From the IMG/VR virus record IMGVR_UViG_3300025141_012107: a stretch of 64,000 nucleotides of DNA; one strand, given 5' to 3'. Position 1 is the stretch's first letter. Each line of letters opens with the position of its first letter. Shown here one piece after another: positions 20,901-63,727 of this stretch. Made by a program: the position numbers and the translations under genes. Below the pieces are notes generated by a model. That model had not been told where the DNA came from. It saw nothing but the letters and a program-made list of their open reading frames with translations, and made no database searches. This DNA is from an uncultured virus (IMG/VR IMGVR_UViG_3300025141_012107). Its lineage: Duplodnaviria > Heunggongvirae > Uroviricota > Caudoviricetes.

Positions 20901-21843
20901 AATACCCGATAAGGCGAGACTTGTTTACAGAAGCGTGTCGATGAGGAACAACCCTATTCGATACTGGAAAGCACAGCATATCGTCAGAAGTAAGATCTTC
21001 AGCCTTTTTCCACTCGAACTCAAAATCTGATTCTTTTTCTACTAATGCTGTAGCATATGATTCGGTCTGATACGCCCCACCTTTTTGACGTTTTTGAAAT
21101 CTACCATACCCCTTAGGAACCTGAATGGGATCTTCAGTTACCCAGCATTTATCTTGTGTTTTTAAGGTCAAAAATGGATGTTCTTTTGTAACCTTGATAT
21201 CAACAGGGTTGTTTTCGACACTTACTTTAAGTATGTCTTCATTCTCTTTGTCTAAGTGCCGTTGAACATTGATTACTTCTCGTATCTCTCCAGTATGGGA
21301 AATAACGAAATCACCAGCTTGCATTTCCGATATGGGGCGATAAGTTCCATCATTCATCAATACTCTCATATCGGGAGTAAAGCAGCCCATCGAAGAGCCA
21401 TTGATATAGCCTTCTTCGATACCTCTGGCTAAGCGTGGATAGGCCAATTTGTCTATGCGGGATATAATGAAGATGCCATCTTTTTCAGTGTCATACCAAG
21501 CGTGAACGCATTCTCCCTTGGCTTTTTCGATGTCGTCATTCTGATGATTTGTGAACATCGGAACGCCGATAAATGTTTGATAAGACTTCTTCAATTCGGC
21601 AGTTGAAAAGAAGTCTCCATTATCATTGATTTCATTCGCCTTGATCGCAAAGATCTTGACGAACAGGTGATCTGGATGTTTTGCGATTGCCTCTTTAAGA
21701 GAGAACCCGCCCAGTTCTTGGTCCTTCTGGACGGAGGCAAACTTAACATTACTCATGTTGAAGATTTCCCAGCCTTCGGGTTTATTGAGAGCTTGGATAT
21801 CTACTTTGGTATTTTCAGTTGTCGCCGTTTTATAAAAGGCCAT
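14923..21843 (-). CDS. Giant prohead protease / scaffold polyprotein with intein
   Basis: N-terminal NDNGDFF..FTNH..KG..SSMG|C protease-like domain, post-intein Cys cluster and FIEDSFVVNPA, ITExQ repeats, Zn ribbons, long acidic region, helical C-terminus; located between portal and capsid genes. Confidence 0.8.
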   Translation of the reverse strand: MAFYKTATTENTKVDIQALNKPEGWEIFNMSNVKFASVQKDQELGGFSLKEAIAKHPDHLFVKIFAIKANEINDNGDFFSTAELKKSYQTFIGVPMFTNHQNDDIEKAKGECVHAWYDTEKDGIFIISRIDKLAYPRLARGIEEGYINGSSMGCFTPDMRVLMNDGTYRPISEMQAGDFVISHTGEIREVINVQRHLDKENEDILKVSVENNPVDIKVTKEHPFLTLKTQDKCWVTEDPIQVPKGYGRFQKRQKGGAYQTESYATALVEKESDFEFEWKKAEDLTSDDMLCFPVSNRVVPHRHASVNKSRLIGYFLAEGSYVKYKGSKTGVELTFGLEEKTLAQEVSNLLDEEFSNTGKSAKIYERPNKNTITVKFHDKDVAAWFMMNCGEYSYGKELSGSILYWDKEVQAHLLGAYFAGDGCRRRITHWRIGKQYDNLSASTCSEKLAHQLRFVLARLGIYSSLYVKETSNRRTSYHISIGSNESQKLNGYTCDQKVVEGNYRQSWFRHADNFMVMPVKAIETIANDQPVFNLEVAEDNSFIVEGVAVHNCAVDYSCCSVCHNHAHTAEDYCSHIREKKNRKLSGNYKCEYHQSNNKPTDSCPLCGTEKGDKKTLVHQAQQAFEHNFGLKFIEDSFVVNPACHDCLVDCILHKPSVQQKVAELSAQVVKMASNVNDEGFVKVNSELMEKEAGVNELEALKNAMTNMEEVTRSMLSQKEHISMAYVSDLVEAMEKVQDLVDELNEMGYSQLPSPDVVSESEGPALIDPAGPEAPPQAPPEPVATSMPGSETGDLGGVGTITKPKLSNELLNSKKEFIKAASKVTRRIEEVRNTVSNLRDKNMSTTTVSGDNGYSVTFDGSYVTEAKGEEVLKVSHLSELSEDIQSLFGQDVEKAAQTVLENRNSKESETMSDQEKTASIGNPSDDDASQGEVITEKQIRDANDLDLHPRTGDTYEGITESDQQLGLDNEPVNDTTSESPQTRRGTYETITEDQLDVVSEGYIVRWKDMQDVITEKQWNDFSRAVASKLSTDQEEWITEAQLKDLLSSHRFVGTYETITEDQLRNQDYGIKRWASREYAQAVVKVAVGAISDAIAKYNRTPAELTRVASKIQDNDDMREKAAYLTLINALPHKGEDRIAVANNVSYFRKMATKSVETPDSLDAMIFAVADNAQHGLKVEDVYESVSHVLRSKEAMKEVDTIVKTKLSEVHEDEPITDKFSALDDAISGLDGRFRIYASIKEVGADPADKAPFIEACNKFAQAQLGNKKAQVITIEIDPEGAAGSLAIDGVDGPEFMGEDEGPCSDIDLGDEDAADDVVDDVLGEPKPMMGAGVAGGGGAGGAMPVASDDAETKTAARAERTKEAQMFGGEMGGQGGAAQAPGAGASLPQPPDAGAAPVESLSTTPDELGGEEGLEGDLSPLPPGSICPVCGSEDVDVISGKFECNNCGSKGTIKIDVEVWEWSGTTSDEKGAEEAEGFEGEGFEVPEEGEGPQIPVAASTRLTPEALQKLAEGEIELGSVSPATGKNNTIKLENGLRMCMDTGTKYMVQYAVDAKNPKNAYAEWRWVPKIAGDECPSCSRARKELLKGLEALNVAEADFDKMSIREKTDLIMKVKADKNSGLNKLASKVGTVVDDYKKAFSVSGTFPIESCREKLARRFGENALALSGPCEGKPIYDCVCSSLKNADVYTDGLAVKLASIWQDKRDGDEECVEHQVRSGYAIREAVSRCGSLKEALASPVHKFADDLAGLMETDEVEDIPVEVGGIDDLDDEVDPFGGDEVGGEGVEMMEGEGVAQKVIDLITELEKAEPGVTEEVDRGLDEALGESPEDIAAEDHHPDGVVEDAAEDVIDDVVGEKEGIEDEVIEEDNPEVPVGDEFKEGDDDLMEEEARPAETGLFGEEQEQEQEFIQAMNMRSDFGQTGKINMDLSDVIAAIEGENKEAQVTQIQHENVQDSEEVKPYTGGEDAGTIGHEDPPKANDPEVPRDNATIGQEPSDLNPQDKPQPEIPVGSPSMGHEEEQGYTGGDDRYTGGEDGAGTSQAASEEDLQKEAELAAMNGFGNPKDRMNALANRILEAQNKKLEAPKPVDEDEDIQPVQKNEDLAGIPEGSKRKPRGDGDEEALEGVKGEGNVSMMGHEQESMGDKPDSPEDHPEIPADNQLLGHEDENDIDPEKQTRDKGTVIASSDAQESEASMNEAYRVAGKMIQAGLIQSEQLQQKVAELQAYKPAQIKDYEKSLFASQKGFDTASRGIEGKAPVISSEVGDELYKASKPNELSSQLQQLFTLGQRVAAAQADDDAQWKQAYNRQ
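20191..21384 (-). mobile_element. Intein with LAGLIDADG endonuclease (398 aa) in prohead protease
   Basis: Starts CFTPDMRV, block B VTKEHPF, LIGYFLAEG and LGAYFAGDG, ends VAVHN followed by Cys. Confidence 0.92.
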
Positions 21844-47292: not shown

Positions 47293-48138
47293 TTAATACG
47301 GCTGTTCTGCGCCTGTCTGGTCTTCAAAGATGCGCATAACATCCGTCCCGAAATAATCGGGGTTGCGCTCTATCTTATTTCGCAACCTTGAAAGGATATC
47401 TTTGTGCATCTGACTAACCCTCGACTCTGAGAGATTTACCTTATCAGCTACCTGACCCATTGTCAGGGATTCATAATAGTAATAGTAAACGATTTTTTGT
47501 TCAACCCTAGAAAAGCTTTTTCCCATTAATTTTGAGAAAAATTCTCGCCTCATCAGACCATTTCCGGGCATTTCCGTATGAGTGTCCTTGAGCATATCGT
47601 TGTAATCCGAATGTCCCTCCCCCATACCCTCGCTCCCAGCTTCCTGAGAATGATTGTTGGAATGATCAAGACTAGCGACATAAACAGAAGAAAACTTCTT
47701 CAAACTATGATTGAGATTCTTATCCTCGATCCCCATCTTTCTAAGAACTTCGATGTCGGATACAAACTCTCCACTTTCCGTTTGCATATGCTGCTTGGTT
47801 CTTTCGAACACGGATATATTCATTCTAACCGTACGAGGAACGATATCCTCCCGCCTCAATCCATCGATCATGGCACCTTTGATTCTAGGACGGGCATAGA
47901 TTTCGAACTTGACGTTGCGATCAGGGTCGTAGCCATCGATGGCATTGTATAGACCGTCTACTCCGAATGAAGCCAGTTCAGTAGGATGGACTTTCCATCT
48001 CATTTTGGCCGCAAGTTTACCAGCTATCTTCTGGACATAGTTAAAGTAAAAGTCAACCAATTGCTGTTTGACTTTATCGTTCCTGGTCTCAAAATGCTGA
48101 TCCCATAGCTGTTCAATTGAAACTTCAGTTTTCACCAT
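47293..48138 (-). CDS. RNA polymerase sigma factor, FliA/WhiG (sigma28) family
   Basis: GLYNAID.YDPDRNVKFE.YA..RIKGAMIDGLRREDIVPR region 2; YYYE.LTM.QVA...NLSESRVSQMH region 4; start at MVKTEV with GGAG RBS. Confidence 0.92.
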   Translation of the reverse strand: MVKTEVSIEQLWDQHFETRNDKVKQQLVDFYFNYVQKIAGKLAAKMRWKVHPTELASFGVDGLYNAIDGYDPDRNVKFEIYARPRIKGAMIDGLRREDIVPRTVRMNISVFERTKQHMQTESGEFVSDIEVLRKMGIEDKNLNHSLKKFSSVYVASLDHSNNHSQEAGSEGMGEGHSDYNDMLKDTHTEMPGNGLMRREFFSKLMGKSFSRVEQKIVYYYYYESLTMGQVADKVNLSESRVSQMHKDILSRLRNKIERNPDYFGTDVMRIFEDQTGAEQPY

Positions 48139-48234
48139 TGTCTCTCCCTTCCATCCACACACACTAGCACCGATATAAACACTATCGGTTTTATGGGCGA
48201 AATATGTCAAGGTTTTTAGTTGAAAAAAAATAGC

Positions 48235-48355: not shown

Positions 48356-49558
48356 ATGGCGATCATCCAGAGCATCATTGATGACGACCTGTATAAACTG
48401 TCGATGCAGGCGGCTATCATGGCCCTTTACCCCAGAAACAAGGTTCGGTACAGGCTGTTCCTTAGAGACGACGTAGAATTCCCGGATGGGTTCGCAGCAG
48501 CACTCAGAGAAGAAGTCAACGCCATTGCGAAACTCGCATTGACTGATGATGAGAAACATTTCCTTTCTTTGTCATGTCCGTATTTTCCGCCGCCGTACCT
48601 TGACTTCCTTCATGGGTACAGGCACGATCCCAACGAAGTCAAGATTTCCCAGAGCGATGGAAAACTCTCGGTAGAAATCGAAGGCTACTGGTATCGAACG
48701 GTTCTTTGGGAAGTTAAGCTCATGGCTTTGATCAGCGAGTTGTATTTTGATCTCATTGGCGGCGACATCAAAATGACAAGGAATTGCATTGACGGACCCG
48801 GCTTCTGGAAAGAACGTGCCGAAGACAAAGGTACGATCATTTACGACAACCAACTTCGTACCGCCGAGTTCGGTTCCCGCCGACGACGCTCATTCCGATG
48901 CCAAGACATTGTTGTCGAGAATCTCAAAAAGATGTCTGGAGAATACTTGATCGGGACATCCAATGTTTATCTCGCAATGAAGCATGGGTTGAAAGCCATT
49001 GGAACGCAGGCTCATGAATGGTACATGTTCCATGCCGCTAAGTACGGCGTCCTCATGGCTAACTCAATGGGCATGGGGAAATGGGTAGACTTCTACCACG
49101 GAAGCTTGGGCATCGCTCTGCCCGATACATTCACGACTCAAGAATTCTTGCGAGTCTTTGATGGGTTCTACGCCAAGCTGTTCGATGGGACTCGACAGGA
49201 TTCCGGAGATCCATATGGATACGGCGAGACTATGGTGAAACACTACGAAGGTTTGGGTATCGATCCCATTACCAAATCTGTCGTTTTCAGCGATGGCCTG
49301 ACCCTTACTGAAGCGATTCAGATCAAAAACGTTTTCCACGATCAGGTCAAAGATTCCTACGGTATCGGAACCCATTTTTCCAATGACGTTGGCGTCGTTC
49401 CTTTGAACATGGTGATCAAAATGGTTGGCATACATACCAATGGAGTCTGGGTTCCGACTTGCAAACTCAGCGATACCCCAGGCAAGCATACTGGTGACGA
49501 AGACACGATCAAACTCTACAAAGAAGAGATCCGGAGGATGAATGGTGTCGCCACATGA
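48356..49558 (+). CDS. pncB: Nicotinate phosphoribosyltransferase
   Basis: DDDLYKLSM, EFGSRRR, GTSNV, GTQAHEW, RQDSGDP, VFSDGL, YGIGT, LNMVIK, KLSD.PGK. Confidence 0.95.
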   Translation: MAIIQSIIDDDLYKLSMQAAIMALYPRNKVRYRLFLRDDVEFPDGFAAALREEVNAIAKLALTDDEKHFLSLSCPYFPPPYLDFLHGYRHDPNEVKISQSDGKLSVEIEGYWYRTVLWEVKLMALISELYFDLIGGDIKMTRNCIDGPGFWKERAEDKGTIIYDNQLRTAEFGSRRRRSFRCQDIVVENLKKMSGEYLIGTSNVYLAMKHGLKAIGTQAHEWYMFHAAKYGVLMANSMGMGKWVDFYHGSLGIALPDTFTTQEFLRVFDGFYAKLFDGTRQDSGDPYGYGETMVKHYEGLGIDPITKSVVFSDGLTLTEAIQIKNVFHDQVKDSYGIGTHFSNDVGVVPLNMVIKMVGIHTNGVWVPTCKLSDTPGKHTGDEDTIKLYKEEIRRMNGVAT

Positions 49559-51603
49559 AAATTGCCCTCATTCAGCTTGATGTCAAAGCTGGAGATCCTG
49601 CTCGCAACGTAAAGCGGATGATCAAGTATATCGATAAAGCCAAAGCAGGCGGCGTCGATATAGTTGCCTTCCCTGAACTTTGCATAGGCGGATATCTCGT
49701 AGGCGATATGTTCAAACACCCATCGTTCTGCCAAGACTTAATGAGCTACAACGAAGATATCCTCAAGGCATCCGAAGGTATCGGAGTCATTTGGGGAAAC
49801 GTCTACATGGACGAAACCAAACGGGGAGAAGACGGCCAACCCATGCTTTTCAATGCCGCCTTCTTCGCCATGGATGGCAAGTACGTTCCGATGGTTGGCG
49901 GATGCGACTTCCTTCCCGGCATCATGTACATCAAGACGCTTCTTCCTAATTATCGGTTCTTCGATGACAAGCGGTACTTCACCAGTTCACTGACATACGC
50001 AAGACATGTAGGATGTAAACTTCCTTCGCTGATTAAACCTTTCTTGTTTGAAGCTCCATCTCAAAAGGGATTGGGACTCAAGCCATATCGAATCGGCTTA
50101 CAGTTGTGCGAAGACCTTTGGTGCGCCGACTATCAAGAAAGAAGAGAGTCCATCAACCCTGCTGGCATATTAACCAAACAAGGCGTTGACCTTATCATCA
50201 ATCTATCTGCCTCTCCTTGGACCATGGGCAAGAATGAAGCCAGGGATCGGCGGATCGCATTCATTGCTAAGGAATGCGGCGATGAATTTGTACCCTACTA
50301 CTATGTTAACGCAACTGGCGCACAGAACAACGGCAAGAACATCGTGACATTTGACGGAGGATCAACCGTCTATGGAAAAGATGGAAAGCCACGATGCCTC
50401 GCATCTGCTAACTTTGAAGAGAGTGACCACACCTATGTTCATGGATGTTTGATCGAGAACTCAAAAAGACTCGACATCATCAATACGCTTCCCGCTGTTC
50501 CAAGGGACAGCGACGAAACTTCGATTGAACAAAAGAAAAACGCTATCGTTCGAGGACTTCGTCACGTTCGCCATATGATGAGGTCCCCAAGCAATCCCAA
50601 TGCGGTCCTCGGTATCAGCGGAGGTATCGACTCTGCCCTTGTTGCCTGCTTGCTTGTTGAAGCTTTTGGCAAAGATAAAGTCATCGGCGTTAATATGCCG
50701 ACTGTCAATAATTCTGAAGAAACCAAAAACGTATTCAATACGTTGGTTGATAATCTGGGCATAGAACATGCGATCATTCCTATTAACGAAGTTGTCAAAC
50801 ATGTAAATCTCGCCCTGCGCATTACAGTGAATTCCAGGATTACTCGTCATCAAAAAGATGGAGAGATCATTCCTCCCATTGTTCAAGAAAACATCCAAGC
50901 CAAGATCCGTTCGACAGACATCCTTTCTAATCTCACCCAATCGATTGGAGAGGACAGAAAACAACCCACGATCTTCACCTGTAACGGCAACAAGGTTGAG
51001 ATCGCTTTGGGTTACGCTACTCTGTACGGAGACTGGGGTGGAGCGGTGGCCCCTATCGGAGATCTGACCAAAGCTGAAGTCTACCAAATGGCTCGTCTGT
51101 ATCAAGCTATACCTCATCAACTTCTTCCGGATGATATTTACAAATTCGGCAAGGGAAAGATTCAACCCAGCGCAGAATTACAACCCCTGGCAAACAAACA
51201 AGTTGATCCCATTAAAGTAGGCTATCATTGTGCTATCATCAGAGAATTGACCAACTATACGATCTCAACGCCTGAGAATCTGGTTGAATGGTGGCTGGAC
51301 GGAACGTTGCATGAAAAGCTGGATATCCCCATCGAGTTGATGAGGCTCCACATGGTTGATGATCCAGTCGTCTTTATTGAAGATCTACAATGGTTAATGA
51401 AAAGAATCAATGGAGCGGTATACAAGAGAGTTCAAAGCCCTCCGATTATCATTACAAGCAAGACGGCTTATGGATATGATCGCCGGGAATCTATTCCTCT
51501 GGGAGTCCCGGTGACTCGCCGTTTTAAACAAGATCTGGTCCCAACTCTGATGGACTGGCCTCGCCGTTATCAGGAAGGTAAAGCTGAGGATCAGAATCAA
51601 TAG
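49555..51603 (+). CDS. nadE: Glutamine-dependent NAD+ synthetase
   Basis: Nitrilase triad FPEL/K/LCEDLW plus LGISGGIDSA, ENIQAKIR, GYATLYGD, PIGDLTK, PSAEL. Confidence 0.95.
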   Translation: MKIALIQLDVKAGDPARNVKRMIKYIDKAKAGGVDIVAFPELCIGGYLVGDMFKHPSFCQDLMSYNEDILKASEGIGVIWGNVYMDETKRGEDGQPMLFNAAFFAMDGKYVPMVGGCDFLPGIMYIKTLLPNYRFFDDKRYFTSSLTYARHVGCKLPSLIKPFLFEAPSQKGLGLKPYRIGLQLCEDLWCADYQERRESINPAGILTKQGVDLIINLSASPWTMGKNEARDRRIAFIAKECGDEFVPYYYVNATGAQNNGKNIVTFDGGSTVYGKDGKPRCLASANFEESDHTYVHGCLIENSKRLDIINTLPAVPRDSDETSIEQKKNAIVRGLRHVRHMMRSPSNPNAVLGISGGIDSALVACLLVEAFGKDKVIGVNMPTVNNSEETKNVFNTLVDNLGIEHAIIPINEVVKHVNLALRITVNSRITRHQKDGEIIPPIVQENIQAKIRSTDILSNLTQSIGEDRKQPTIFTCNGNKVEIALGYATLYGDWGGAVAPIGDLTKAEVYQMARLYQAIPHQLLPDDIYKFGKGKIQPSAELQPLANKQVDPIKVGYHCAIIRELTNYTISTPENLVEWWLDGTLHEKLDIPIELMRLHMVDDPVVFIEDLQWLMKRINGAVYKRVQSPPIIITSKTAYGYDRRESIPLGVPVTRRFKQDLVPTLMDWPRRYQEGKAEDQNQ

Positions 51604-53958: not shown

Positions 53959-54378
53959 TTACAGATCCAAGAAATTGAATCGGCTCATTTCTTCTGGTTC
54001 CTCTTCCTTTTCAGGAAGAGATTTGTTAGAGCCTTTTTTGCGAGGTGATTTTTTACGAGGCGTTTTAGCTCCAGCCTTTCCGGCTGCCTTCTTTTTCTTT
54101 TTCGTTATCTTTTTCACGCTCTGATCTTTAGCTTCCGAATAGATAAGTCCAACGAGAGACCCAACCGTCGTCGAGTTCGCCCCGCAAAACATAAGTATGT
54201 CGTTATCGCTCTCTTCCAGAGTAACGCCTATCTGATCTTCTAGTTTCATAATTAATTCAAGCACGTTTACGTCGTCAATCAACTCTGCAACCTTCATATC
54301 AACGTCTGGCATGATACCAGAATAGTCTCGTATACAAAGCTTGATGATTTGCTCGATTTGCCTATAGAGTGGATTCAT
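53959..54378 (-). CDS. Acyl-carrier-protein-like fold with basic tail, lacking the attachment Ser
   Basis: ELIDDVNVLELIMKLEDQIGVTL...TTVGSLV matches the ACP helix II-IV pattern; DSL replaced by DDV. Confidence 0.6.
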   Translation of the reverse strand: MNPLYRQIEQIIKLCIRDYSGIMPDVDMKVAELIDDVNVLELIMKLEDQIGVTLEESDNDILMFCGANSTTVGSLVGLIYSEAKDQSVKKITKKKKKAAGKAGAKTPRKKSPRKKGSNKSLPEKEEEPEEMSRFNFLDL

Positions 54379-54728
54379 TATTCCTCACCTATCTCGTTCC
54401 CGTCTTCCAGCACAACGATTGTAGGATCTGTATTTCCTGCTTCTTTCCATGGAACCAAAGCGAATGCCATGATGATAACATGCTGACCGATCTCAACCTT
54501 TTGAGCGGCAGCACCATTGATGAAGATTGCGGTTTGGTCGCCCTCCGGTATGACGTAAGTTTCAAACCTTTCACCGGTTTCTATGACTGCTACAAGAACT
54601 TTTTGATATGGTAGAATGTGGGAAGCATCCAGTATGGCTTGTCCTATACCTATGCTTCCTTCATAGTACGGAAATATTCCGGAGACCTCTGCTCCATGAA
54701 TTTTGCTCTTGAGCATCTCTACTTGCAT
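54378..54728 (-). CDS. panD: Aspartate 1-decarboxylase
   Basis: MLKSKIH.A.V, YEGSI self-cleavage site, GERFETYVI, INGAAA. Confidence 0.93.
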   Translation of the reverse strand: MQVEMLKSKIHGAEVSGIFPYYEGSIGIGQAILDASHILPYQKVLVAVIETGERFETYVIPEGDQTAIFINGAAAQKVEIGQHVIIMAFALVPWKEAGNTDPTIVVLEDGNEIGEE

Positions 54729-54926: not shown

Positions 54927-54946
54927 AAATTCCCTTAGTTTTAAAG

Positions 54947-55037
54947 CGGAGACGCTGGGATTCGAACCCAGGAAGGAGCAATTCAGCCCCTTAATTGATT
55001 AGCAGTCAATCGCCTTCAACCACTCGGCCACATCTCC
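54947..55037 (-). tRNA. tRNA-Ser(GCT)
   Basis: Cloverleaf; ATTGA-CTGCTAA-TCAAT; long variable arm; GGTTCGAATCC; no encoded CCA. Confidence 0.93.
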
Positions 55038-55086
55038 TAATTTACCTATCGTCATGAAATGAATTTTACCAGACATGTAAACACAA

Positions 55087-55177
55087 AGGAAGGTAAGGGA
55101 ATCGAACCCTCGGACCCCATTTCTAGGACCACTGGTTTTCCAAACCAGCACGACTAACCAACATCCGTCTACCTTCC
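55087..55177 (-). tRNA. tRNA-Ser(GGA)
   Basis: CTGGT-TTGGAAA-ACCAG; long variable arm; discriminator T. Confidence 0.88.
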
Positions 55178-55185
55178 AAGTAGAA

Positions 55186-55279
55186 AGGAAGGTAAGGGGA
55201 TCGAACCCTTGTAACCCCTTGTTCAGGGGTTAACTGGTTTTCGAAACCAGCGCAACAAACCAACATTTGCCTACCTTCC
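55186..55279 (-). tRNA. tRNA-Ser(CGA)
   Basis: CTGGT-TTCGAAA-ACCAG; paralogue of the GGA tRNA; discriminator T. Confidence 0.88.
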
Positions 55280-55296
55280 AAGTTTTTCCAAACAAG

Positions 55297-55354
55297 AGGA
55301 GAGTATGGGATTCGTTACGGTTGCTTCGTTTTCCGAAGCTGTTCATAACTCTCC
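55297..55354 (-). pseudogene. Internally deleted tRNA remnant / mini tRNA-like hairpin
   Basis: Acceptor strands GGAGAGT/ACTCTCC and half T-arm CGAATCCCAT retained; interior is a single GCTTCG/CGAAGC hairpin. Confidence 0.55.
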
Positions 55355-55358
55355 TAAG

Positions 55359-55445
55359 CGGAAGGGACAGGAATCGAACCTGCATCACGCTTCTAACGTG
55401 AAACCGTTTTCAAGACGGCTTAGCCCGCCAATAGCAAGCCCTTCC
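55359..55445 (-). tRNA. tRNA-Ser(TGA)
   Basis: GCCGT-CTTGAAA-ACGGT; long variable arm; atypical D-arm. Confidence 0.85.
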
Positions 55446-55530
55446 TAAATATCTGTCGGGAATCCACGCTACTTGAGACCATCTGCCCTTTTTTCAAAAA
55501 GCATTGTTTGTAGTAAATTTCCTTGGCCAC

Positions 55531-55857
55531 CTACTGCCCCCATCTCATTGCCAACATTCCTGCTACTACCAAACCCAAACCTGTCCATTGCCATCCGCTG
55601 AACTTGTCTCCCGCTCCCAAATAAAGCATAGTCAACGGAAAGACAAGAAAGATTATACTATCAAAAAGAAGCCCGTCAAACAACTGCCTCTTTGAAATAA
55701 TAGATATCAACACCCACCATTGACCTAAGGCTCCCCAAAGGAAAGCCGTCCATGCCCAGAGATGTCCGCCGTCCTGATTCAGCCTAAAGGTGAAGTAGTA
55801 GTAGACGGAATACCAAACAGCTATGCATGGGACCCACCATAAATAATGATACCACAT
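55531..55857 (-). CDS. Small four-helix membrane protein (DMT/EamA-like)
   Basis: Four hydrophobic segments; GDKFSGWQWTGLGLVVAG; GGAG RBS. Confidence 0.7.
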   Translation of the reverse strand: MWYHYLWWVPCIAVWYSVYYYFTFRLNQDGGHLWAWTAFLWGALGQWWVLISIISKRQLFDGLLFDSIIFLVFPLTMLYLGAGDKFSGWQWTGLGLVVAGMLAMRWGQ

Positions 55858-55894
55858 TTTGTTTCATCTCCGCCTCCTGTCGCTGCTTCAAAAA

Positions 55895-55938
55895 GGAAGG
55901 TAAGGGAATCAAACCCTTGGACCCCATTTCTAGGACCA
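55895..55938 (-). repeat. Truncated 3'-half copy of tRNA-Ser(GGA)
   Basis: 44 nt matching 55088-55131 with two substitutions. Confidence 0.85.
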
Positions 55939-55958
55939 TTCGCTTCCTGTTATTTAAG

Positions 55959-56050
55959 CGGATAGGGAGGGATTCGAACCCTCAGATCATCAAAGACGAC
56001 CCCCTGATTAGCAATCAGGTGTCCCGCACCAGTGGGAATCCAGCCTATCC
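55959..56050 (-). tRNA. Second tRNA-Ser(GCT), atypical D region
   Basis: CCTGA-TTGCTAA-TCAGG; long variable arm; GGTTCGAATCC. Confidence 0.8.
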
Positions 56051-56142: not shown

Positions 56143-56940
56143 TTACTTGTCGTCATCTTCCTTTTTATTATCAACTACCGCCTTAAGTTTGTCAAGTGTT
56201 GCTTGAGCAACATCTTGGTCATCGTCCTGATCGTCGTCAAGCAGATGGTCGATCTTCGATGCCGCAATATCTGCTCCGGCATCATACAGGGCAGCTTTCG
56301 TACCGACATATGACCCTCTGGACATGGATATATCGGCGAATGCCCGCCGAGTACCGACCTGATCCCCCTTATAGGCCATGGTATTGCCTTGCGGGATATT
56401 CAGTCGATCAGCCGTAACAACAACATCGTGATTCGCCCCGATATAAGTAAACGTCCAGGTTCCATCCTGTTGCAGGTGCTTGAGAAGATCCGCAACCTGA
56501 TTGCCATTGTACTCTCTCGAAGCATTTTCTTCGCCATCTGTCAGGATAGTAACCATCACTTCAACGTTGATTTTCTCGTCCTGAAGTTCTTCGTCGATCT
56601 CTGCTTTCAGACGATTACAGCTTTGCCCAATGGCATCGTAAAGAGCCGTCGTACTTTCGGGAGCATACTGTTCAGCGGTCAATGGTTCGATGACATCGAC
56701 GCCTTCTTTCCAGTGGATTGATTCGACCGAACTGTTGAAAGTTATCAGGCAATAACGATGCTCTTGATTCGGGTTCTCTCTTTGCAGTTTCTGGATGGTT
56801 GTGACATTTTCGTTAAAGCCATTGACTGTTGGCTTTATTACTGAACTCATCGAAGCACTACGATCTAATATGATCAGATGATAGAACTTGATGGGGATGT
56901 TCTTGTCTCGCCCACCGACATCTAGGTTAGGGTTGGGCAT
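56143..56940 (-). CDS. von Willebrand factor A domain protein
   Basis: ILDRSASM MIDAS, TALYDAIG, ILTDGEENAS, FTYIGAN. Confidence 0.92.
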   Translation of the reverse strand: MPNPNLDVGGRDKNIPIKFYHLIILDRSASMSSVIKPTVNGFNENVTTIQKLQRENPNQEHRYCLITFNSSVESIHWKEGVDVIEPLTAEQYAPESTTALYDAIGQSCNRLKAEIDEELQDEKINVEVMVTILTDGEENASREYNGNQVADLLKHLQQDGTWTFTYIGANHDVVVTADRLNIPQGNTMAYKGDQVGTRRAFADISMSRGSYVGTKAALYDAGADIAASKIDHLLDDDQDDDQDVAQATLDKLKAVVDNKKEDDDK

Positions 56941-56998: not shown

Positions 56999-57529
56999 CT
57001 ACTCACTCTCATTTGTCTTTGGTTCTTGGTTATCTAATCTCATCGCTTCTGGAGAAAACTGATCATAAACGTTGATTCCTGCTGATTCCAATTCTTTCAC
57101 AATGATATATGCAGCAAGTTCGTATTTATCTTTCAAGCTCCCCTTGTTGAGGTCTCGAAGATTATGGTTGATATCGGCTATCTTAACCAATGAGGCAGGA
57201 ACGTTCGTCCTCAACCTCATGATGAAATCAAAGTAGCTTTCATCCTCATCTTTCCTTCTAGTCAGACAATCAACTGCTTCAACGATTGCCATTGGGAATC
57301 CCTCTTGCCGCAAATCTACAAGAGTATATTCGCTATCCTCAACAACGTCATGCAACCATGCCACAACCTTATATAGAGGAGGAAGGACAGAATCTGCTAC
57401 TGCCTTGGGGTGAGTAATGTATGGCTGACCTCCCCACCTTGTTTGGCCATAATGAGCCTCTGTAGCGATTTTCTCGGCCTTTTCAATCAGTCCATCAATC
57501 GATTCCATCGGATCCATGATCATTCCCAA
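56999..57529 (-). CDS. HD-domain hydrolase, RelA/SpoT small alarmone hydrolase (Mesh1)-like
   Basis: AH.GQTR..G.PYITHP, AWLHDVVED, VKIADINHN. Confidence 0.88.
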   Translation of the reverse strand: MGMIMDPMESIDGLIEKAEKIATEAHYGQTRWGGQPYITHPKAVADSVLPPLYKVVAWLHDVVEDSEYTLVDLRQEGFPMAIVEAVDCLTRRKDEDESYFDFIMRLRTNVPASLVKIADINHNLRDLNKGSLKDKYELAAYIIVKELESAGINVYDQFSPEAMRLDNQEPKTNESE

Positions 57530-58584: not shown

Positions 58585-58613
58585 ATGTTACCAGAAACCA
58601 AAATCCTTGTCAA
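58585..58613 (-). promoter_or_regulatory. sigma70-type promoter
   Basis: TTGACA-N17-TAACAT. Confidence 0.6.
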
Positions 58614-58616
58614 GTC

Positions 58617-59264
58617 CTACTTGTAACTCCGAACCGCAAAGTCCTTTAGAGTTACGGACCAACTCTTCCAACGAGGGTTGTCCGAAAGAACGTAGTCCAA
58701 AACTTCCTCAGCCACAACCGTAACGACTAGCATTACGATATTTCGGGCCAAAGGATAGTCACAGACATCTCCATCTTCCGAATTTGCCGGAACTTGGTAA
58801 ACGCTGTCCCAAACGACTTCTCCATAGTCCTCGAACAAACCGGAATGCAAGCAATCGATCTTGTTCTTAGAACAATAGTCGTGGAGAACCTGCCGGGCCT
58901 CGCTGTTGTCGAACGCATCGATAACAAGCTTAGCACCCTTGAGTAACTTCTTGACGTTTTTTTCTTCAAGCTTCTTGTTTACAACGTCGATTTCCACGCC
59001 AACATCCCTCCAGATACGATTTTGCAAAGCCGTAACCTTCAAAGCTCCAACGTCGTTGTCGCCATAGACTTGAGTGTTGACGTTATGTTCGTCAACTCGG
59101 TCCATGTCGATGACGCAGATATCGCTTACGCCCTGACGGATCAGGGTCTCTACCAAGTTGCTACCCAAAGCACCCGCACCGCAAACAACGATACGAACGC
59201 CCTTGAGACGATCAATCAGACCTTCTCCACGGTAGGCGATTTCATGTGTGAATTTCTTGGCCAT
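58617..59264 (-). CDS. E1/ThiF-family ubiquitin-like-activating adenylyltransferase
   Basis: VCGAGALGS, IDMDRVDEHNVNTQ, K, LVIDAFDN..AR; candidate catalytic Cys in DVCDYPL. Confidence 0.92.
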   Translation of the reverse strand: MAKKFTHEIAYRGEGLIDRLKGVRIVVCGAGALGSNLVETLIRQGVSDICVIDMDRVDEHNVNTQVYGDNDVGALKVTALQNRIWRDVGVEIDVVNKKLEEKNVKKLLKGAKLVIDAFDNSEARQVLHDYCSKNKIDCLHSGLFEDYGEVVWDSVYQVPANSEDGDVCDYPLARNIVMLVVTVVAEEVLDYVLSDNPRWKSWSVTLKDFAVRSYK

Positions 59265-59671
59265 TTTTTCGCTTTCTTCATAATGGGTCTAACAACTGTC
59301 GGCATAACCCCCACAATTCTTTTCTTGATCATTCGAATATGTCCCTCAACGAAAGGTTGTTCGTCGTCAAAGAACCAGAAGCATCTTAGCCCATCTGCTC
59401 CCTTAATGCAACATACAAACGGTCTTCCTTCGGCAACTATCCAAGCATTCATAGTTAAGATGTCGGTTGTGCTGGGACTTGCAATCATTGAAGGATGGGT
59501 ATGAATCCAACCAATCACTCGATCAGGATCTCTCCTGACAAGTTCATGGTTGAATCCAACCCTAGCTGGGATGCCCAATTCATAAGAGATAGCGCTCGTA
59601 ACCCAAACGGGTCCGTACAGATCTCCTACCAAGATGTAGGACTCTTCGTCGCCAGTATTCATATTGAACAT
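59216..59671 (-). CDS. JAB/MPN+ metallopeptidase
   Basis: EE..., GWIHTHPS..SPSTTD JAMM motif; TGATG-coupled start. Confidence 0.85.
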   Translation of the reverse strand: MFNMNTGDEESYILVGDLYGPVWVTSAISYELGIPARVGFNHELVRRDPDRVIGWIHTHPSMIASPSTTDILTMNAWIVAEGRPFVCCIKGADGLRCFWFFDDEQPFVEGHIRMIKKRIVGVMPTVVRPIMKKAKKWPRNSHMKSPTVEKV

Positions 59672-60606
59672 CAATCGCTCCAATCTCCAGTGTAATCGTC
59701 GGTTCCTCTATCGTCTACGTCAAGATAGTTCCCGCCAACTCGGTAAATCTGGTTGCCCGTAATACCCTCTCGGATAACGCCAACCAAACTCTGCAAGTCG
59801 AAGTTCCTATCTCCACCAGACAAACAGATGCCCGCCGATTGAACAGCAAGCGTTTTCTTATCAACAGTCGAACGATGAGTTTCACCATCGACAACATACT
59901 CGACAGTATACGACTCGCCTCGCTCAACGAAACTCCTGAATCCGCCACCAGCACGATTGATTGCCGACTTTACTCGACCTTCTGCCGTAAGAGCTTCCGC
60001 CTCGACAGCAAGCCTCTTGGCTTCCTTTTCGGCCTCAACAACATCGACCAAAGCAAGGTCGTAAGCACGTCTCTGTTCCTTTGACATACTTGAAAAATCA
60101 ACGTCCTTCGGGGCAACGTTTTCTGACAAGGCATTTCTCAATACAGTTGCATGCTTGATGCTATGAGCGTCGTCGATCCTTTCGAACCAACAGTTGATGC
60201 CATCGAATCTAACACGCACTGCATCGAACAACTGCAATTCTTCCGGCAAAAGAATAGGAACAAATCCTTGAATCTTGAACCGGGAATCACCTTCGTTTGC
60301 AGGGATACCCCAGAAACGGTTGTCCTGTCGCCTGGTTGCGATCAACCTTAGAACAGGGAACAGGTTGAAGTACGTTCGCCTCTCGATCATCGTAGGCTCA
60401 CGTACAAACTCTGCGAGCTTGTAGGAAGCGGGACGGAATACGCCCCAACCCTCAAAACCTCTCGGCTTTGAAACCCGCAATGACATAACGATGTCAGCAA
60501 TCTTAACCCTGATCGCCTTATTGCGCAGAACAGGGCTGAAGAATTCCGACTTGAGGAAAACATCTTCTTCCGCTGCCAACTTTTTCAAAAGCTCATTGAC
60601 CTTCAT
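59671..60606 (-). CDS. Conserved hypothetical protein of the TROVE-Ubl operon
   Basis: 311 aa, GGAG RBS; C-terminal SAGICLSGGDRNFDLQSLVGV motif. Confidence 0.8.
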   Translation of the reverse strand: MKVNELLKKLAAEEDVFLKSEFFSPVLRNKAIRVKIADIVMSLRVSKPRGFEGWGVFRPASYKLAEFVREPTMIERRTYFNLFPVLRLIATRRQDNRFWGIPANEGDSRFKIQGFVPILLPEELQLFDAVRVRFDGINCWFERIDDAHSIKHATVLRNALSENVAPKDVDFSSMSKEQRRAYDLALVDVVEAEKEAKRLAVEAEALTAEGRVKSAINRAGGGFRSFVERGESYTVEYVVDGETHRSTVDKKTLAVQSAGICLSGGDRNFDLQSLVGVIREGITGNQIYRVGGNYLDVDDRGTDDYTGDWSD

Positions 60607-60621
60607 GGCCTTACTCCAATT

Positions 60622-60652
60622 AAAACAGGGTAGCAGAAGCTACCCTGTTTTT
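60622..60652. terminator. Intra-operon terminator/attenuator hairpin
   Basis: AAAACAGGGTAGC-AGAA-GCTACCCTGTTTT 13-bp perfect stem. Confidence 0.8.
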
Positions 60653-60678
60653 CAAGTCAAAATGTAGCTCCTTCCGGA

Positions 60679-62223
60679 TTACGCAACTTTCCTTTGAGGG
60701 AGAGTATACGACATAATTTCCATCAACAGATCGATCTTCGACGGCTTCGTCAAAAGCGGGATCAACCCCGGCAACGAGTAATAGTCGCCGTTGAAGATAT
60801 ACGCATCGTAGTCGATGTCGTTATTGCGACATCGCTGTTCCAGCGTATCCCGATGCGTCCCGCACTTAACGAACAGAACGTTCGGACGAGTGTCCATATC
60901 CTTCATGTAGTTCAATATGCTGGACAAGAACGACGGAGATCGGTTCTCACCTTCGTCCGTAATCATGATGATGTTCTCGACGTACTGCTTGTTACGTCGA
61001 AGCATCTCAATTCCGACGCCGCAGGAAGTACATCCGGTAGCAAAGATGCCATTCAGAGCCTTTTCCCACGATGCCAAATCCGTTCCGCTCGAAACAATCG
61101 GATACGCCATTTCGTCACAAGCATAGACGAACAAATCAGCGTCCATGATTGCCGAAGTCATAGCAGCAATCTGCTTACCAACTTCAATGGCGATGTTCAT
61201 CGAACCGGACTTATCGATGATGATTGCCGTAGGACGCTTGATACGTCCCTTCGACTTCAACTGAGCATCACCGATGTCCTCAAGCTGCTTGGCAACGTCT
61301 TCGTCAATATCAGTAGTCTTCTTGACCTGGGACGCTTTCATAGCCGCAACACGCTTGCCCGTCTTTGCCTTGTCAAGACGTTCCTGAATGAACGCCTTGA
61401 GGTCCGGGTTGTCGAATGCACCACGACGCTTCAACGAACCGATGTTGTTGATCAACTCTTGGTCACTCATGACCTGAACCAAAGCCAAAAGAACGGTCGG
61501 ACTCATTGCCGAGATTACCGTCGATGCGATTCGGTACGGAACCTTGTTGGCGATGATGATCTCAGCCTGCTTTGCAGCCGACTCAGTCTTACGCAGTTCC
61601 TTAACCGCCTTCAACTTGCTGTCATCAGGCGGATCTTCATCGAAGAGAATCTTTTGCGCTCGATCCGAAGGCTCAATGTGGAGAAGAGAGTAAACCCTCT
61701 TCAACGACTTTCGAGCCTGCAAAACGCAAGCGTCGAACCAAACCGGATCGTCTTCACGATCAGTCAGGTATCGCTTAACTTCCGTTGCAACAGATCGAGG
61801 AATATTCTTGCCCAGACCAGAATCCGTCAAAGCCGTTCGATGAGTCGTCTTCTGGTTGCGGCCAGTTCCAGTCGTAACCGGAGTACTGACCTTTTTCTTG
61901 CGACCGTGAATGAAGTCGATAACTCTCTCCACCTGATAAGGCGGCAGTTCACGGAGCATGGCCAGTCCAACGTCTCGGTGTCCTTCGAAGTTGCTCAGAC
62001 ACAGGTTGACGATGAACAGTTCCTTATGGTCACGGATCTCGCCATTGTCAGCATACCATGCGCCCAAACGAACGTAGAACAACGGATCTTGAGCAATCAT
62101 CTGTTCATGAACAGGATGACTTGCGCTCAGATTTCTGTGGGGAGTCATCAACAGCGTATTCAGCATCCCCAAACGAAGATCCTGTTCACTGGACGTATCA
62201 ACTTGTGCAGTTCGTACAGCCAT
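60679..62223 (-). CDS. Ro60/TROVE-like helical protein with C-terminal vWA domain
   Basis: ~330-aa helical N-terminus (DPLFYVRLGAWY..IRD, ..MSDQELINNIGSL..G) then IIIDKSGSM MIDAS, GCTS, MITDEGEN; size and Y-like RNAs upstream support the call. Confidence 0.72.
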   Translation of the reverse strand: MAVRTAQVDTSSEQDLRLGMLNTLLMTPHRNLSASHPVHEQMIAQDPLFYVRLGAWYADNGEIRDHKELFIVNLCLSNFEGHRDVGLAMLRELPPYQVERVIDFIHGRKKKVSTPVTTGTGRNQKTTHRTALTDSGLGKNIPRSVATEVKRYLTDREDDPVWFDACVLQARKSLKRVYSLLHIEPSDRAQKILFDEDPPDDSKLKAVKELRKTESAAKQAEIIIANKVPYRIASTVISAMSPTVLLALVQVMSDQELINNIGSLKRRGAFDNPDLKAFIQERLDKAKTGKRVAAMKASQVKKTTDIDEDVAKQLEDIGDAQLKSKGRIKRPTAIIIDKSGSMNIAIEVGKQIAAMTSAIMDADLFVYACDEMAYPIVSSGTDLASWEKALNGIFATGCTSCGVGIEMLRRNKQYVENIIMITDEGENRSPSFLSSILNYMKDMDTRPNVLFVKCGTHRDTLEQRCRNNDIDYDAYIFNGDYYSLPGLIPLLTKPSKIDLLMEIMSYTLPQRKVA

Positions 62224-62273
62224 GGTCTTTCTCCTTAGAAAGAGTTTTACAAATTATCGATTCGGATTCGGAA

Positions 62274-62483
62274 TTAACCGAATACAGCCTGCGGACGAAG
62301 AGTCATGTCACCGGTTTCTGCGTTGCGGTCAACAACGAAACCATTCATCTTGGTGAGAGGAGCACTGAAGTGATTAGCTACAGCCTGCTTGACGTCTTGG
62401 TCGGTAGAGAGATCGCCCACATCGATATCCTCGAAGAGAAGATCGAACGATTCTCCATTGTATCTGACGTGAAGTACTGACAT
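62274..62483 (-). CDS. Ubiquitin-like (beta-grasp) small protein ending in Gly
   Basis: 69 aa, strand-strand-helix-strand pattern, C-terminus LRPQAVFG, strong AAGGAG RBS, operon with E1 and JAB. Confidence 0.72.
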   Translation of the reverse strand: MSVLHVRYNGESFDLLFEDIDVGDLSTDQDVKQAVANHFSAPLTKMNGFVVDRNAETGDMTLRPQAVFG

Positions 62484-62528
62484 TTTTCATCTCCTTTCGT
62501 CTGCAAGCCTCAAGAGAGGCATAAAAAA

Positions 62529-62660
62529 AGCCTTGTCTAAGTTTCAGGACGGTTTCTTGGGTAACGTGCAAGATTTGAACTTGCGACCTTCACTTCCTAA
62601 TAGTGACGCTCAACCTACTGAGCTAACGTTTGTAACGTCCAAATTGTTGGAGACAAGGCT
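62529..62660 (-). ncRNA. Y-RNA-like RNA A: module replaces/extends the acceptor stem of a D-AC-T tRNA domain
   Basis: AGCCTTGTCTCCAA...AACTTAGACAAGGCT terminal stem, GGACG/CGTCC helix, TACAAAC, then D arm, TCACT/AGTGA arm, GCAAG-TTCAAAT-CTTGC; ends in T7. Confidence 0.8.
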
Positions 62661-62663
62661 AAG

Positions 62664-62798
62664 TGGGAGAGGTAGGAGTCGAACCTACGAGTCTTGCGTT
62701 TTCAGGGCAATGCTTTACCAAAAGTTTGTAAGCTACATCCCATTGGAGACGGACAAGCCGTCTAAGTCAGAATAGCTATAGCACTAAGCTACTCTCCC
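62664..62798 (-). ncRNA. RNA B: tRNA-Phe(GAA)-like with permuted Y module inserted in D-loop
   Basis: GGGAGAG/CTCTCCC-A acceptor, CTGAAAA loop, GTAGG-TTCGACT-CCTAC; ~62-nt D-loop insert with ACTTAGACGG-CTTGT-CCGTCTCCAA...TACAAAC. Confidence 0.82.
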
Positions 62799-62824
62799 AT
62801 AATTATTCAGTTTTCAAAAAGCGA

Positions 62825-62893
62825 ACGTCCAAGTTCAGGCAGCGGTCAAAGCATTCCGAAGATTGGTTTGTATGCTGTCCTTGTTGGGGACGT
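62825..62893 (-). ncRNA. RNA C: minimal Y-like module without tRNA domain
   Basis: ACGTCCCCAA...CAGC-A-TACAAAC...GCTG...AACTTGGACGT. Confidence 0.72.
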
Positions 62894-62908
62894 CAACTTA
62901 ATTTCAAG

Positions 62909-63050
62909 TGGGGGAGACAGGACTCGAACCTGTAGTCTTTCGCTTATGAGGCAAACGCTTTTCCATTTGTTTGTAAGCTACGACCTATTGGAGACGAACA
63001 AGCCGTCTAAGTTGGAATAGCTGTTTAACGTAGTTTTTAGCTACTCCCCC
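62909..63050 (-). ncRNA. RNA D: tRNA(CAT)-like with permuted Y module inserted in D-loop
   Basis: GGGGGAG/CTCCCCC-A acceptor, TTTGC-CTCATAA-GCGAA, ACAGG-TTCGAGT-CCTGT; ~69-nt insert with AACTTAGACGG-CTTGT-TCGTCTCCAA...TACAAAC. Confidence 0.82.
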
Positions 63051-63055
63051 ATGGA

Positions 63056-63100
63056 GGTCCCGGTCGCCAAGTTTCCGAAGAAGCTTGACGAGTCAGGACC
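63056..63100 (-). other. Long TTCG-capped hairpin between RNAs D and E
   Basis: GGTCC..TCGTCAAG.TTC-TTCG-GAA.CTTGGCGA..GGACC; AACTTGG echoes the Y-module 3' strand. Confidence 0.45.
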
Positions 63101-63131
63101 ATATAGTTTTCAAAGAACTCTTTGAAAAGTC

Positions 63132-63298
63132 AAGAAGAAACAGGCGTCCAAGTTCGAGCAGCGGTATGACATTAGTCACAGATCTTAAATCTGTTGCCTT
63201 ATCCACTTGGCTATACGTTCATGTTGGTGAACATAGTGGGATTCGAACCCACGTTGTTGTTTGTACGCTACGCCAGTAGGGGACGCCGGTTTCTTCTT
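63132..63298 (-). ncRNA. RNA E: Y-like RNA containing circularly permuted tRNA-Leu(TAA)
   Basis: GGCGTCCCCTA...AACTTGGACGCC stem extended by AAGAAGAAAC/GTTTCTTCTT; interior order T arm, acceptor 3' strand + ACCA, acceptor 5' strand, D arm, ACAGA-TTTAAGA-TCTGT. Confidence 0.82.
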
Positions 63299-63374
63299 CA
63301 CTTGTCAAAGTCGAGCCTTACGACTCTGCCCTATCTTATCAGCTTCCCAGCCACTTTCAAGGGCAATATTCAAC

Positions 63375-63402
63375 TTATCGGCTTTTTCTTGAAATTCCTT
63401 TA
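63375..63402 (-). promoter_or_regulatory. sigma28/FliA-type promoter for the Y-RNA/TROVE/Ubl locus
   Basis: TAAA-N16-GCCGATAA; known sigma28 consensus is TAAA-N15-GCCGATAA. Confidence 0.7.
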
Positions 63403-63418
63403 ATGAATTCCGCAAAGC

Positions 63419-63727
63419 TCAGTTTTTCTTACCTCTCGCAGCTTCAGAGGGCATCTTACCATATCTTTTATGGCTGTCAACCCCTAAATCATCGTCGTCA
63501 AAATCATCTCCGTCATCCCAAACTTCTCCGTTCTCATCTTTGTAACGCTCGTCTTTCATCCAAGTTATCACAACAGGATCTTCGCCTCGATAAAACTTTT
63601 CCTGATGCTGCCCGTCATGATCCTGGGGGAGAGGACATCGGACGGTAGCAACCCCATCGCCAAAGTCGTCTCCGATATAAAGGTGAGCATTACATTCGCC
63701 TTCAACATCTTCTGGTTTTCCAAACAT
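63419..63727 (-). CDS. Hypothetical acidic protein
   Basis: 102 aa, AGGAG RBS. Confidence 0.75.
   Translation of the reverse strand: MFGKPEDVEGECNAHLYIGDDFGDGVATVRCPLPQDHDGQHQEKFYRGEDPVVITWMKDERYKDENGEVWDDGDDFDDDDLGVDSHKRYGKMPSEAARGKKN

Follow-up and report, generated by a model that had tools for sequence, protein, structure and literature searches.

What does a Ro60-like protein have to do with enzymes that resemble those attaching ubiquitin? The question is raised by a 64,000-nucleotide stretch of DNA from an uncultured virus of the Caudoviricetes (IMG/VR IMGVR_UViG_3300025141_012107), referred to here, at its full length, as the window. A minus-strand block of this DNA contains five structured RNAs, a 69-aa protein, a Ro60-fold protein, a 311-aa protein designated X, a JAB metallopeptidase and a ThiF/E1 protein without a zinc site (Table 1). 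The five open reading frames (ORFs) share the strand at 58617-62483, and each was found where an earlier sequence-only reading had placed it; that reading took the block for a phage-encoded ubiquitin-like (Ubl) conjugation operon coupled to a Ro ribonucleoprotein (RNP). What holds is a conserved Ubl-like/E1/JAB set tied to Ro60 and to Y-like tRNA mimics, with invariant candidate cysteines on E1 and X; a phage-specific origin and an argument about stoichiometry drawn from a hairpin do not. The cassette is real, widespread and apparently undescribed, and joins two known kinds of system. The window itself is phage DNA, as terminase, portal and major head protein sit upstream; the nearest record found is a virus record 122,591 bases long and rated 26% complete, and the longest contig carrying these cassette proteins measures 338 kb.

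A Ro60-fold protein beside Y-like RNAs

Homology and covariation show three things: a Ro60 ring fold, a single two-helix Y-like module with interchangeable tRNA-like heads, and a small protein, X and E1 that travel as a set. The 514-aa protein has no Pfam match of its own, and neither it, the small protein nor X has a meaningful match in Pfam, NCBIfam or PHROG. A model built from a 31-sequence alignment (predicted local distance difference test, pLDDT, 84.7) was matched by Foldseek to Ro60, Rsr and phiRo60 across its whole length (E 7e-12 to 1e-8; template modelling score by query 0.56-0.67), bearing out the TROVE-vWA identity proposed from sequence. All top 12 rows were of this kind, including vertebrate Ro60, Deinococcus Rsr and the Ro60 of Thermus phage phiLo, at 12-15% identity; as modelled, the protein is a HEAT-repeat ring closed by a vWA domain, i.e. 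the Ro60 fold. The metal ion-dependent adhesion site follows the pattern DxSxS...T...D. Indeed, D337, S339, S341, T399 and D423 are invariant in 31/31 aligned Ro60 proteins, and DxSxS is present in 96/96 long Ro60 ORFs.

This Ro60 clade is large and divergent, with 1920 homologs among 8000 candidates scored. A genome scan yielded at least 582 relatives, of which the best 80, from Planctomycetota, cyanobacteria, Acidobacteria, Chloroflexi and Armatimonadota, were kept as cellular loci; 16 viral contigs besides bring the Ro60-anchored loci to 96, each with at most 6 kb on either side and many of them shorter. A single Ro60 sequence returned nothing as the query of the locus scan, for which an alignment query was required. 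Because 80 of the 96 loci are cellular and at least 582 relatives were found in the genome scan, the cassette cannot be called phage-specific, and the notion of a phage invention has to be given up: Planctomycetota, cyanobacteria and other bacteria have these genes in the same order. A second Ro60-like gene lies downstream of the first in one locus (L058, 8774-10207).

Gene co-occurrence around Ro60 exceeds chance: within 6 kb of it, the small protein was found in 65 of the 96 loci, X in 48, E1 in 41 and JAB in 19. The order is always small protein, Ro60, X, JAB (if present) and E1, in cells and phages, and Ro60-X-JAB-E1 was seen in 11/11 viral loci found via X (9 of these 11 contigs had already been found via Ro60) as well as in LR756511. 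Co-inheritance was followed in 40 genomes or records in which X does not stand beside Ro60, including metagenome-assembled genomes (MAGs) of unstated completeness; the unpublished genome G047 was excluded from this tally, and its locus L080 is included in the 96-locus counts and in alignment A3. X and E1 agree in 40/40, with both present in 28 and neither in 12, and the small protein occurs in the same 28 and two more (agreement 38/40). The cassette genes are nearly all single copy. X was found in 34 of 301 sampled cyanobacterial genomes, or about one in nine. Split or frameshifted genes for X, Ro60 or the small protein, reflecting decay or assembly error, were seen at L047 7785-8629, L025 5806-7555 and L006 5570-5767, and in G018 and G024.

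The five RNA units at 62528-63287 share one module, which runs from a 6-bp terminal helix (P1) through CC(N)A, a short helix (P2) and UACA(A/U)AC to a variable head, and closes with the pairing strand of P2, ACUU and the pairing strand of P1. A search pattern for this module, tuned on 9 of the loci, detected 176 copies on the Ro60 strand in 69/80 cellular loci and 45 in 9/16 viral loci, against 1 copy on the opposite strand and 1 in 288 shuffled loci. A Y-like RNA copy of opposite orientation lies at L092 5404-5535 (-). Across 31 bacterial copies, the structure was 96.5% paired, compared with 81.9% in shuffles, and double changes occurred in all six helices; the covariation of P1 is in part circular, since pairing in P1 was used to choose the rows, and P2 varies little. 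Independent checks come from the strand control, the shuffles and a model built from bacteria only (R1), which, applied to the window, matched RNAs C, D and E and part of B and none of the ordinary window tRNAs. Rfam recognised only the tRNA part: its YrlA model RF02553 scored 19.8 bits in the window, at RNA D, against a gathering threshold of 69, and had no match in 11 homologous loci. Together the RNAs make up a covarying Y-like family that Rfam does not contain and whose tRNA bodies are permuted in several ways, and the claim of Y-like RNAs directly upstream of the genes is upheld by module pattern, covariation and bacteria-only model. In broad terms they have the features of Y RNAs, lying beside Ro60 on its strand with a terminal stem, a conserved internal loop and a tRNA-like domain.

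The heads fall into several types. Acceptor-ended RNAs like A and B, with a perfect 7-bp acceptor in 18/19, were all from phages (the window and 7 viral loci) and occurred in 0/80 cellular loci. C-type RNAs have a 7-nt anticodon loop in 27/31 aligned copies and display 17 different anticodons, a variety that would fit a bait role. RNA C itself was miscalled as tRNA-Leu by ARAGORN; its acceptor is a 4-bp stump and not chargeable, and the candidacy of C, A and B as ordinary tRNAs was rejected. In cyanobacteria, the same program calls C-type RNAs tRNA-Pyl(CTA), tRNA-Asn(ATT) and others (L045 3760-3833, L050 962-1035, L051 4771-4843, L054 3597-3671; further calls in L041, L055, L059 and L073), and tRNA annotations of this type are probably false.

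The small protein, E1, JAB and X

In the small protein, H5, G10, S12, R63, P64, A66 and G69 are invariant in 50/50 sequences, and the chain ends in one Gly preceded by an aromatic residue, not in GG. Residues beyond the terminal Gly were seen in 4/15 JAB-bearing loci and 0/50 JAB-less loci, as would be expected if JAB matures a precursor. Searches of the ESM Atlas with this protein returned unnamed clusters only.

E1 shows a Rossmann fold with GxGxxG and a family score well above the cut-off. Among 40 sequences, C168 and R174 are present in 40/40 and a CxxC zinc site in 0/40, while the Gly-rich loop, R12, D53, N61, Q65, K76, D119, R124 and C168 are kept in 39-40/40. Placed by sequence order, C168 is the candidate catalytic Cys of the crossover loop. 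No rhodanese fusion is present, and the best NCBIfam matches are to ThiF/MoeB, with every curated cut-off missed.

JAB falls just below the Pfam cut-off (PF14464, 23.8 bits versus 25; E 4e-5) and gives weak matches to Cap3 (E 0.07) and to desampylase. JAB/JAMM enzymes are marked by the pattern E...HxH-x7-S-x2-D, and here E13, H61, H63, S71 and D74 are invariant in 19/19 aligned sequences, so that the full metal motif is present. Its true start is likely the ATG at 59671, which overlaps the stop of X. JAB is nearly phage-only within the cassette, occurring in 13/16 viral loci versus 6/80 cellular ones (6/30 of the cellular loci showing E1).

In 254/269 sequences, protein X has a Cys that is framed as G-x-C-L and precedes a helix. 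In its model, the C-terminal order of helix, four strands, Cys and helix fits that of a shortened E2, and bacterial non-canonical E2s without the last helices are described in a preprint (10.1101/2024.11.21.623953). A profile of this domain compared with UBC (6 sequences), Prok-E2_B (2), E (6) and D (7) reached 0.04-0.5% probability, a comparison too weak to be informative because UBC versus Prok-E2_B also gave only 0.46%, and of the two positive controls one failed and the other reached only 14%. A hidden Markov model search with the domain gave 1017 matches, with the lengths and motif of the same family among the 150 matches listed, and the ESM Atlas returned nothing usable. X is a candidate E2-equivalent, although not a recognisable UBC member.

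Of 1193 ORFs, 30 were scanned as neighbours, chosen to represent the recurring clusters, with a few singletons added. With one representative per cluster scanned, cellular neighbours comprise L7/L12 (13 loci), an HNH nuclease (8), EF-Ts (6), RNA ligase (6), a lone vWA protein (5) and Tpt1 (4); tRNA arrays also recur. L7/L12, EF-Ts, RNA ligase and Tpt1 stand beside Ro60 in the cyanobacterial loci L026, L027, L030, L034, L037, L039, L040, L041, L046 and others, suggesting that this neighbourhood may be a spare-parts island for translation. No sulfur-relay enzyme was found among the 30 neighbours, in agreement with what had been noted for the window.

A possible conjugation relay and its alternatives

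How might these parts work together? We tentatively favour, at somewhat less than an even chance, a thioester relay in which the small protein passes through E1 to X and is attached to proteins that have engaged the tRNA mimics held by Ro60 while translation or tRNA is under attack. The cassette would then be a mobile module responding to tRNA damage or stalled translation, carried by bacteria and borrowed by large phages. In keeping with established E1 chemistry, E1 would adenylate Gly69 of the small protein, take it as a thioester on Cys168 and pass it to Cys261 of X, which we infer to act as an E2. The weakest step is the one in which Ro60 would grip the RNAs by their conserved module while the tRNA-like heads lure anticodon nucleases or other tRNA-binding proteins; that Ro60 binds the module is suggested by position and likeness. 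As part of that weakest step, X may use its OB folds to dock on the RNP and join the small protein to a lysine of the captured protein, or to Ro60, leaving the target disabled or marked. JAB would trim C-terminal extensions and reverse the tag, and phages would need it more than cells do. This relay is favoured because there is one invariant cysteine per enzyme and an invariant terminal Gly, because X and E1 agree in every genome compared and the order is kept in cells and phages, and because 17 anticodons are displayed on a non-chargeable acceptor amid neighbours for translation and RNA repair. A fuller proposal is RNA-guided Ubl conjugation, in which Ro60 would show multi-anticodon tRNA mimics as programmable bait and the OB-fold protein X would tag whichever nuclease or tRNA-binding protein engages them, in bacteria against ribotoxins and translation stress, and in large phages, with their own JAB and acceptor-ended RNAs, against host tRNA-cleaving defences; in this complete form, the idea is doubtful.

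Several observations weigh against the relay. The Arg of NxxRQ is part of the ATP-binding motif in E1 enzymes, and the corresponding position 64 is Thr in 38, Pro in 1, Asn in 1 and Arg in 0 of the 40 E1 sequences. The motif reads STQ, as it does in the first adenylation domain of Uba1, which is inactive; the Arg is present in 9egc and in the active Uba1 domain. The invariant R174 could be a substitute for the lost residue. Fold searches with the whole X model, in which the OB domain dominated, listed OB folds and weak alpha/beta matches and no E2; ahead of its Cys, X has neither the YP..P nor the HPN motif in 45 loci and in the window, and both motifs are present in the UBC set. For the small protein, the terminal Gly expected of a Ubl is conserved, but the earlier label of Ubl is not confirmed by fold: no match was found in Pfam or among PDB sequences, and no beta-grasp family by profile. 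In ten of the 40 genomes or records (eight planctomycete MAGs and one cyanobacterial MAG, completeness not stated, and one virus record), Ro60 and RNAs occur, but none of the small protein, X and E1 was found. Cyanobacterial X-E1 pairs are often far from Ro60, with an RNA module within 1.5 kb in 1/12 such loci. Finally, Chen et al. (2014, PMC4201824) give GNCGAAN0-1G, similar to GGUCCGA, as the Ro-binding motif near the 5' end; in its strict form it has 0 matches in 62521-63300, and a related GUCYCCNA strand occupies that place.

Those last genomes and loci also lend themselves to a different account, which we consider unlikely yet worth taking seriously: two co-regulated modules may share one translation-stress island, with a genuine Ubl-E1-X conjugation whose target is set by X alone and a separate Ro60-RNA particle engaged in the known RNA repair or decay. 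Ro60 and RNAs lacking the conjugation genes, X-E1 at a separate site in many cyanobacteria, and other translation-rescue genes that come and go in the same island would all be natural under such an arrangement. However, the small protein stays by Ro60, interleaved with the RNAs, even where X-E1 has moved; the order is kept in phages with other genes inserted between; and a module RNA lies 5' of X in 12 Nostoc-like and acidobacterial loci and in 6 planctomycete loci. Quite unlikely is a sulfur relay of the Urm1/TtuB type, in which the small protein would carry a thiocarboxylate and Cys261 of X would pass sulfur to tRNA or to the Y-like RNAs, for example as a shield against nucleases. OB folds in X like those of RNA-binding proteins, adjacent tRNA arrays, the ThiF/MoeB affinity of E1 and the absence of JAB in 24/30 cellular loci showing E1 would suit this chemistry, and the host could provide sulfur in trans; the neighbours scanned, however, include no desulfurase, rhodanese or TtuA-type family, E1 has neither rhodanese fusion nor zinc site, and the small protein has one Gly where GG would be expected. 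ThiS/ThiF, MoaD/MoeB and Urm1/Uba4 relays and the tRNA dehydratase TcdA share the ThiF-family adenylation fold with this E1, whereas the zinc CxxC, rhodanese, synthase partner and GG end are all missing here.

Attachment of the small protein to RNA itself, either at a damaged end or at the acceptor end left free in the A/B-type RNAs peculiar to phages, with X as an RNA-directed transferase, strikes us as decidedly improbable. It would account for OB folds and a catalytic-looking Cys in one protein, for RNA ligase and Tpt1 as neighbours and for the perfect acceptor stem of nearly all permuted phage RNAs, but cellular loci keep the enzymes while having no acceptor-ended RNAs, and the bacterial systems reviewed offer no precedent. 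The slimmest prospect is a non-covalent complex in which E1, having lost adenylation, would form a scaffold or sensor together with X and the small protein. The NxxRQ Arg, missing in 40/40, and the lack of an E2 or beta-grasp match point that way; conservation of the Gly-rich loop and the other listed residues of E1, of the terminal Gly and of the JAB active site argues otherwise, as does the possibility that R174 stands in for the lost Arg.

Known systems and features of the locus

The Ro60 half of the cassette resembles the bacterial and phage Ro60 (Rsr) systems with YrlA/YrlB, in Ro60 fold and vWA metal site (PMC4201824, PMC12135203), as well as in gene-adjacent, same-strand RNAs whose paired ends surround a conserved internal loop and which carry a tRNA-like domain, in one copy here arranged in YrlA order. 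It differs in the protein, which shows 12-15% identity in the fold alignments, in its motif, GUC(Y)CC(N)A...UACA(A/U)AC...ACUU instead of GNCGAAN0-1G, in having at least four tRNA topologies with complete, variable anticodon loops, and in its linkage to Ubl-like/E1/X/JAB genes instead of a tethered PNPase. Few YrlA RNAs were detected in cyanobacteria by Chen et al. (PMC4201824).

The other half recalls Bil (BilABCD) and Bub, which share the gene set of Gly-ended Ubl, E1, E2-position protein and JAB, and trimming after Gly; in the accessible part of that preprint (10.1101/2024.11.21.623953), however, neither Ro60 nor RNA is reported; X stands apart by its OB folds and by the lack of any detectable match to UBC, and Bub uses a Tyr/Ser oxyester where a Cys-based chemistry is proposed here, for a cassette that also occurs in phages and in which JAB is optional. 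With CBASS Cap2/Cap3 there is an E1-like adenylation domain in common (PADLOC E1-E2 models, E 6e-18) and the weakly Cap3-like JAB, but the conserved neighbours include no CD-NTase or effector, the modifier stands alone and no E2-E1 fusion occurs. PRTRC systems (Prok_Ub, Prok-E2_D, JAB, ThiF) likewise have an approximately 70-aa Gly-ended protein with similar predicted strand and helix spacing by eye, ThiF (TIGR03736, for which E1 here scores 49 bits versus a cut-off of 144.75) and JAB; there is no Pfam match here to PF14454 or PF14460 and no ParB-like partner, and the RNP linkage is particular to this cassette. None of the partners of type II CBASS, Bil, Bub or PRTRC (CD-NTase, UBC-type E2, DUF6527, Prok_Ub) was detected by PADLOC, Pfam or NCBIfam, which gave only ThiF and JAB, or in the 30 neighbours. 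Nidhogg viruses of Helarchaeota are large viruses reported to encode Ro60 (TROVE and vWA), ThiF-family proteins and RNA ligase, but the available text treats these genes separately, as a hijack of host ubiquitin, and mentions neither an operon nor a small modifier, X or an RNA family (10.1101/2021.07.29.454249).

A description of the cassette was not found in the literature searched, which left out most subscription papers and might overstate novelty; the prior notice of TROVE-Ubl linkage mentioned in the sequence-only reading could not be traced there either. A jumbo-phage review notes that a few phages have ROT/TROVE together with a tRNA-like partner (PMC7824862), and PMC7159879 covers other Ubl systems; TROVE, ThiF and ubiquitin are not named in the part available of the Anabaena TrcR regulon paper (PMC10272220), nor do the terms TROVE and vWA occur in Iyer 2006 (PMC1779556). 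Ro60-Y RNA particles and bacterial Ubl conjugation have each been studied, and no link between them was found in the literature searched. The cassette suggests, in a form that can be tested, which partners other than PNPase the Y RNAs tether. It also offers a candidate new cysteine transferase family and a new family of RNAs whose copies currently receive tRNA annotations. Were the target set by the RNA, the cassette would also represent an RNA-programmable modification system and a new phage counter to anticodon nucleases.

Table 1. Features of the cassette and its flanks in the window, from high to low coordinates
Feature	Position	Strand	Details
Promoter match, sigma-70-like, 5' of RNA array	63453..63480	-	TTGACA-16-TAAGAT, 10/12, consensus only
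RNA D	63143..63287	-	Y-like stem round permuted tRNA body: T arm, acceptor hairpin with CCA loop, D arm, anticodon arm UAA; YrlA-like order; R1 E 3.9e-6; fold z -4.66
RNA A	62909..63050	-	Circular permutation, ends forming intact 7-bp acceptor stem; Y-like module replaces D arm; anticodon CAU; perfect acceptor pairing; fold z -3.43; partial Rfam tRNA match 35.4 bits
RNA E	62825..62893	-	Short Y-like RNA without tRNA body; R1 E 1.9e-4; fold z -3.92
RNA B	62664..62798	-	Permuted, acceptor-ended like RNA A; perfect acceptor pairing; R1 matches part, E 1.9e-3; fold by itself weak, z -1.39
RNA C	62528..62660	-	D/anticodon/T body (UAG), shortened acceptor on Y-like stem, then U run; R1 64.1 bits, E 1.3e-14
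Candidate ubiquitin-like protein, 69 aa	62274-62483	-	End RPQAVFG; C-terminal Gly
Divergent Ro60/TROVE-vWA protein, 514 aa	60679-62223	-	Fold match; DKSGS...T399...D423 metal site
Terminator-like hairpin, Ro60/X gap	60622..60651	-	13-bp stem; z -6.65, 0/200 shuffles
Protein X, 311 aa	59671-60606	-	OB fold(s) in N-terminal beta region, then long helix; alpha/beta domain at C-terminus with G259-I-C261-L
JAB/JAMM metallopeptidase	ORF 59216-59683, listed 59216..59671	-	Sequence motif HTHPSMIASPSTTD
Minimal ThiF/E1	58617-59264	-	PF00899 E 8e-31, 107 bits versus cut-off 28.1
Promoter-like site just past E1 stop	58585..58613	-	TTGACA-17-TAACAT, consensus match only

The hairpin between Ro60 and X is real, but the argument that it sets abundant structural components apart from scarce enzymes does not extend beyond this locus, as its position is not kept: it is a local feature, because other genes or a Y-like RNA stand at that position in homologous loci. 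The promoter match upstream of the RNA array is not significant alone, because 6 sites were found versus 5.8 expected in shuffles. The approximately 160 nt between it and RNA D (63290-63450, minus strand) contain an extra hairpin not matching the module. At the other end, the promoter-like site past E1 and a next gene without a homolog in the 96 loci suggest that the operon may end at E1; this downstream 260-aa gene was ruled out as a cassette member, with homologs in 0/96 loci at E 0.05.

Just downstream of the operon, the minus strand encodes a stand-alone SpoT-like HD hydrolase (56999-57529), a lone vWA protein (56143-56940) and a PanD-like aspartate decarboxylase (54378-54728). A cluster of five tRNA-Ser genes occupies 54946-56050 on the same strand (GCT twice, GGA, CGA and TGA), one of them barely above the tRNA-Sec cut-off. 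Farther away are an NAD synthetase (49555-51603, plus strand), a sigma factor (47293-48210, minus strand) and, between the portal and capsid genes, a 2306-aa protein of unassigned function (14923-21843, minus strand).

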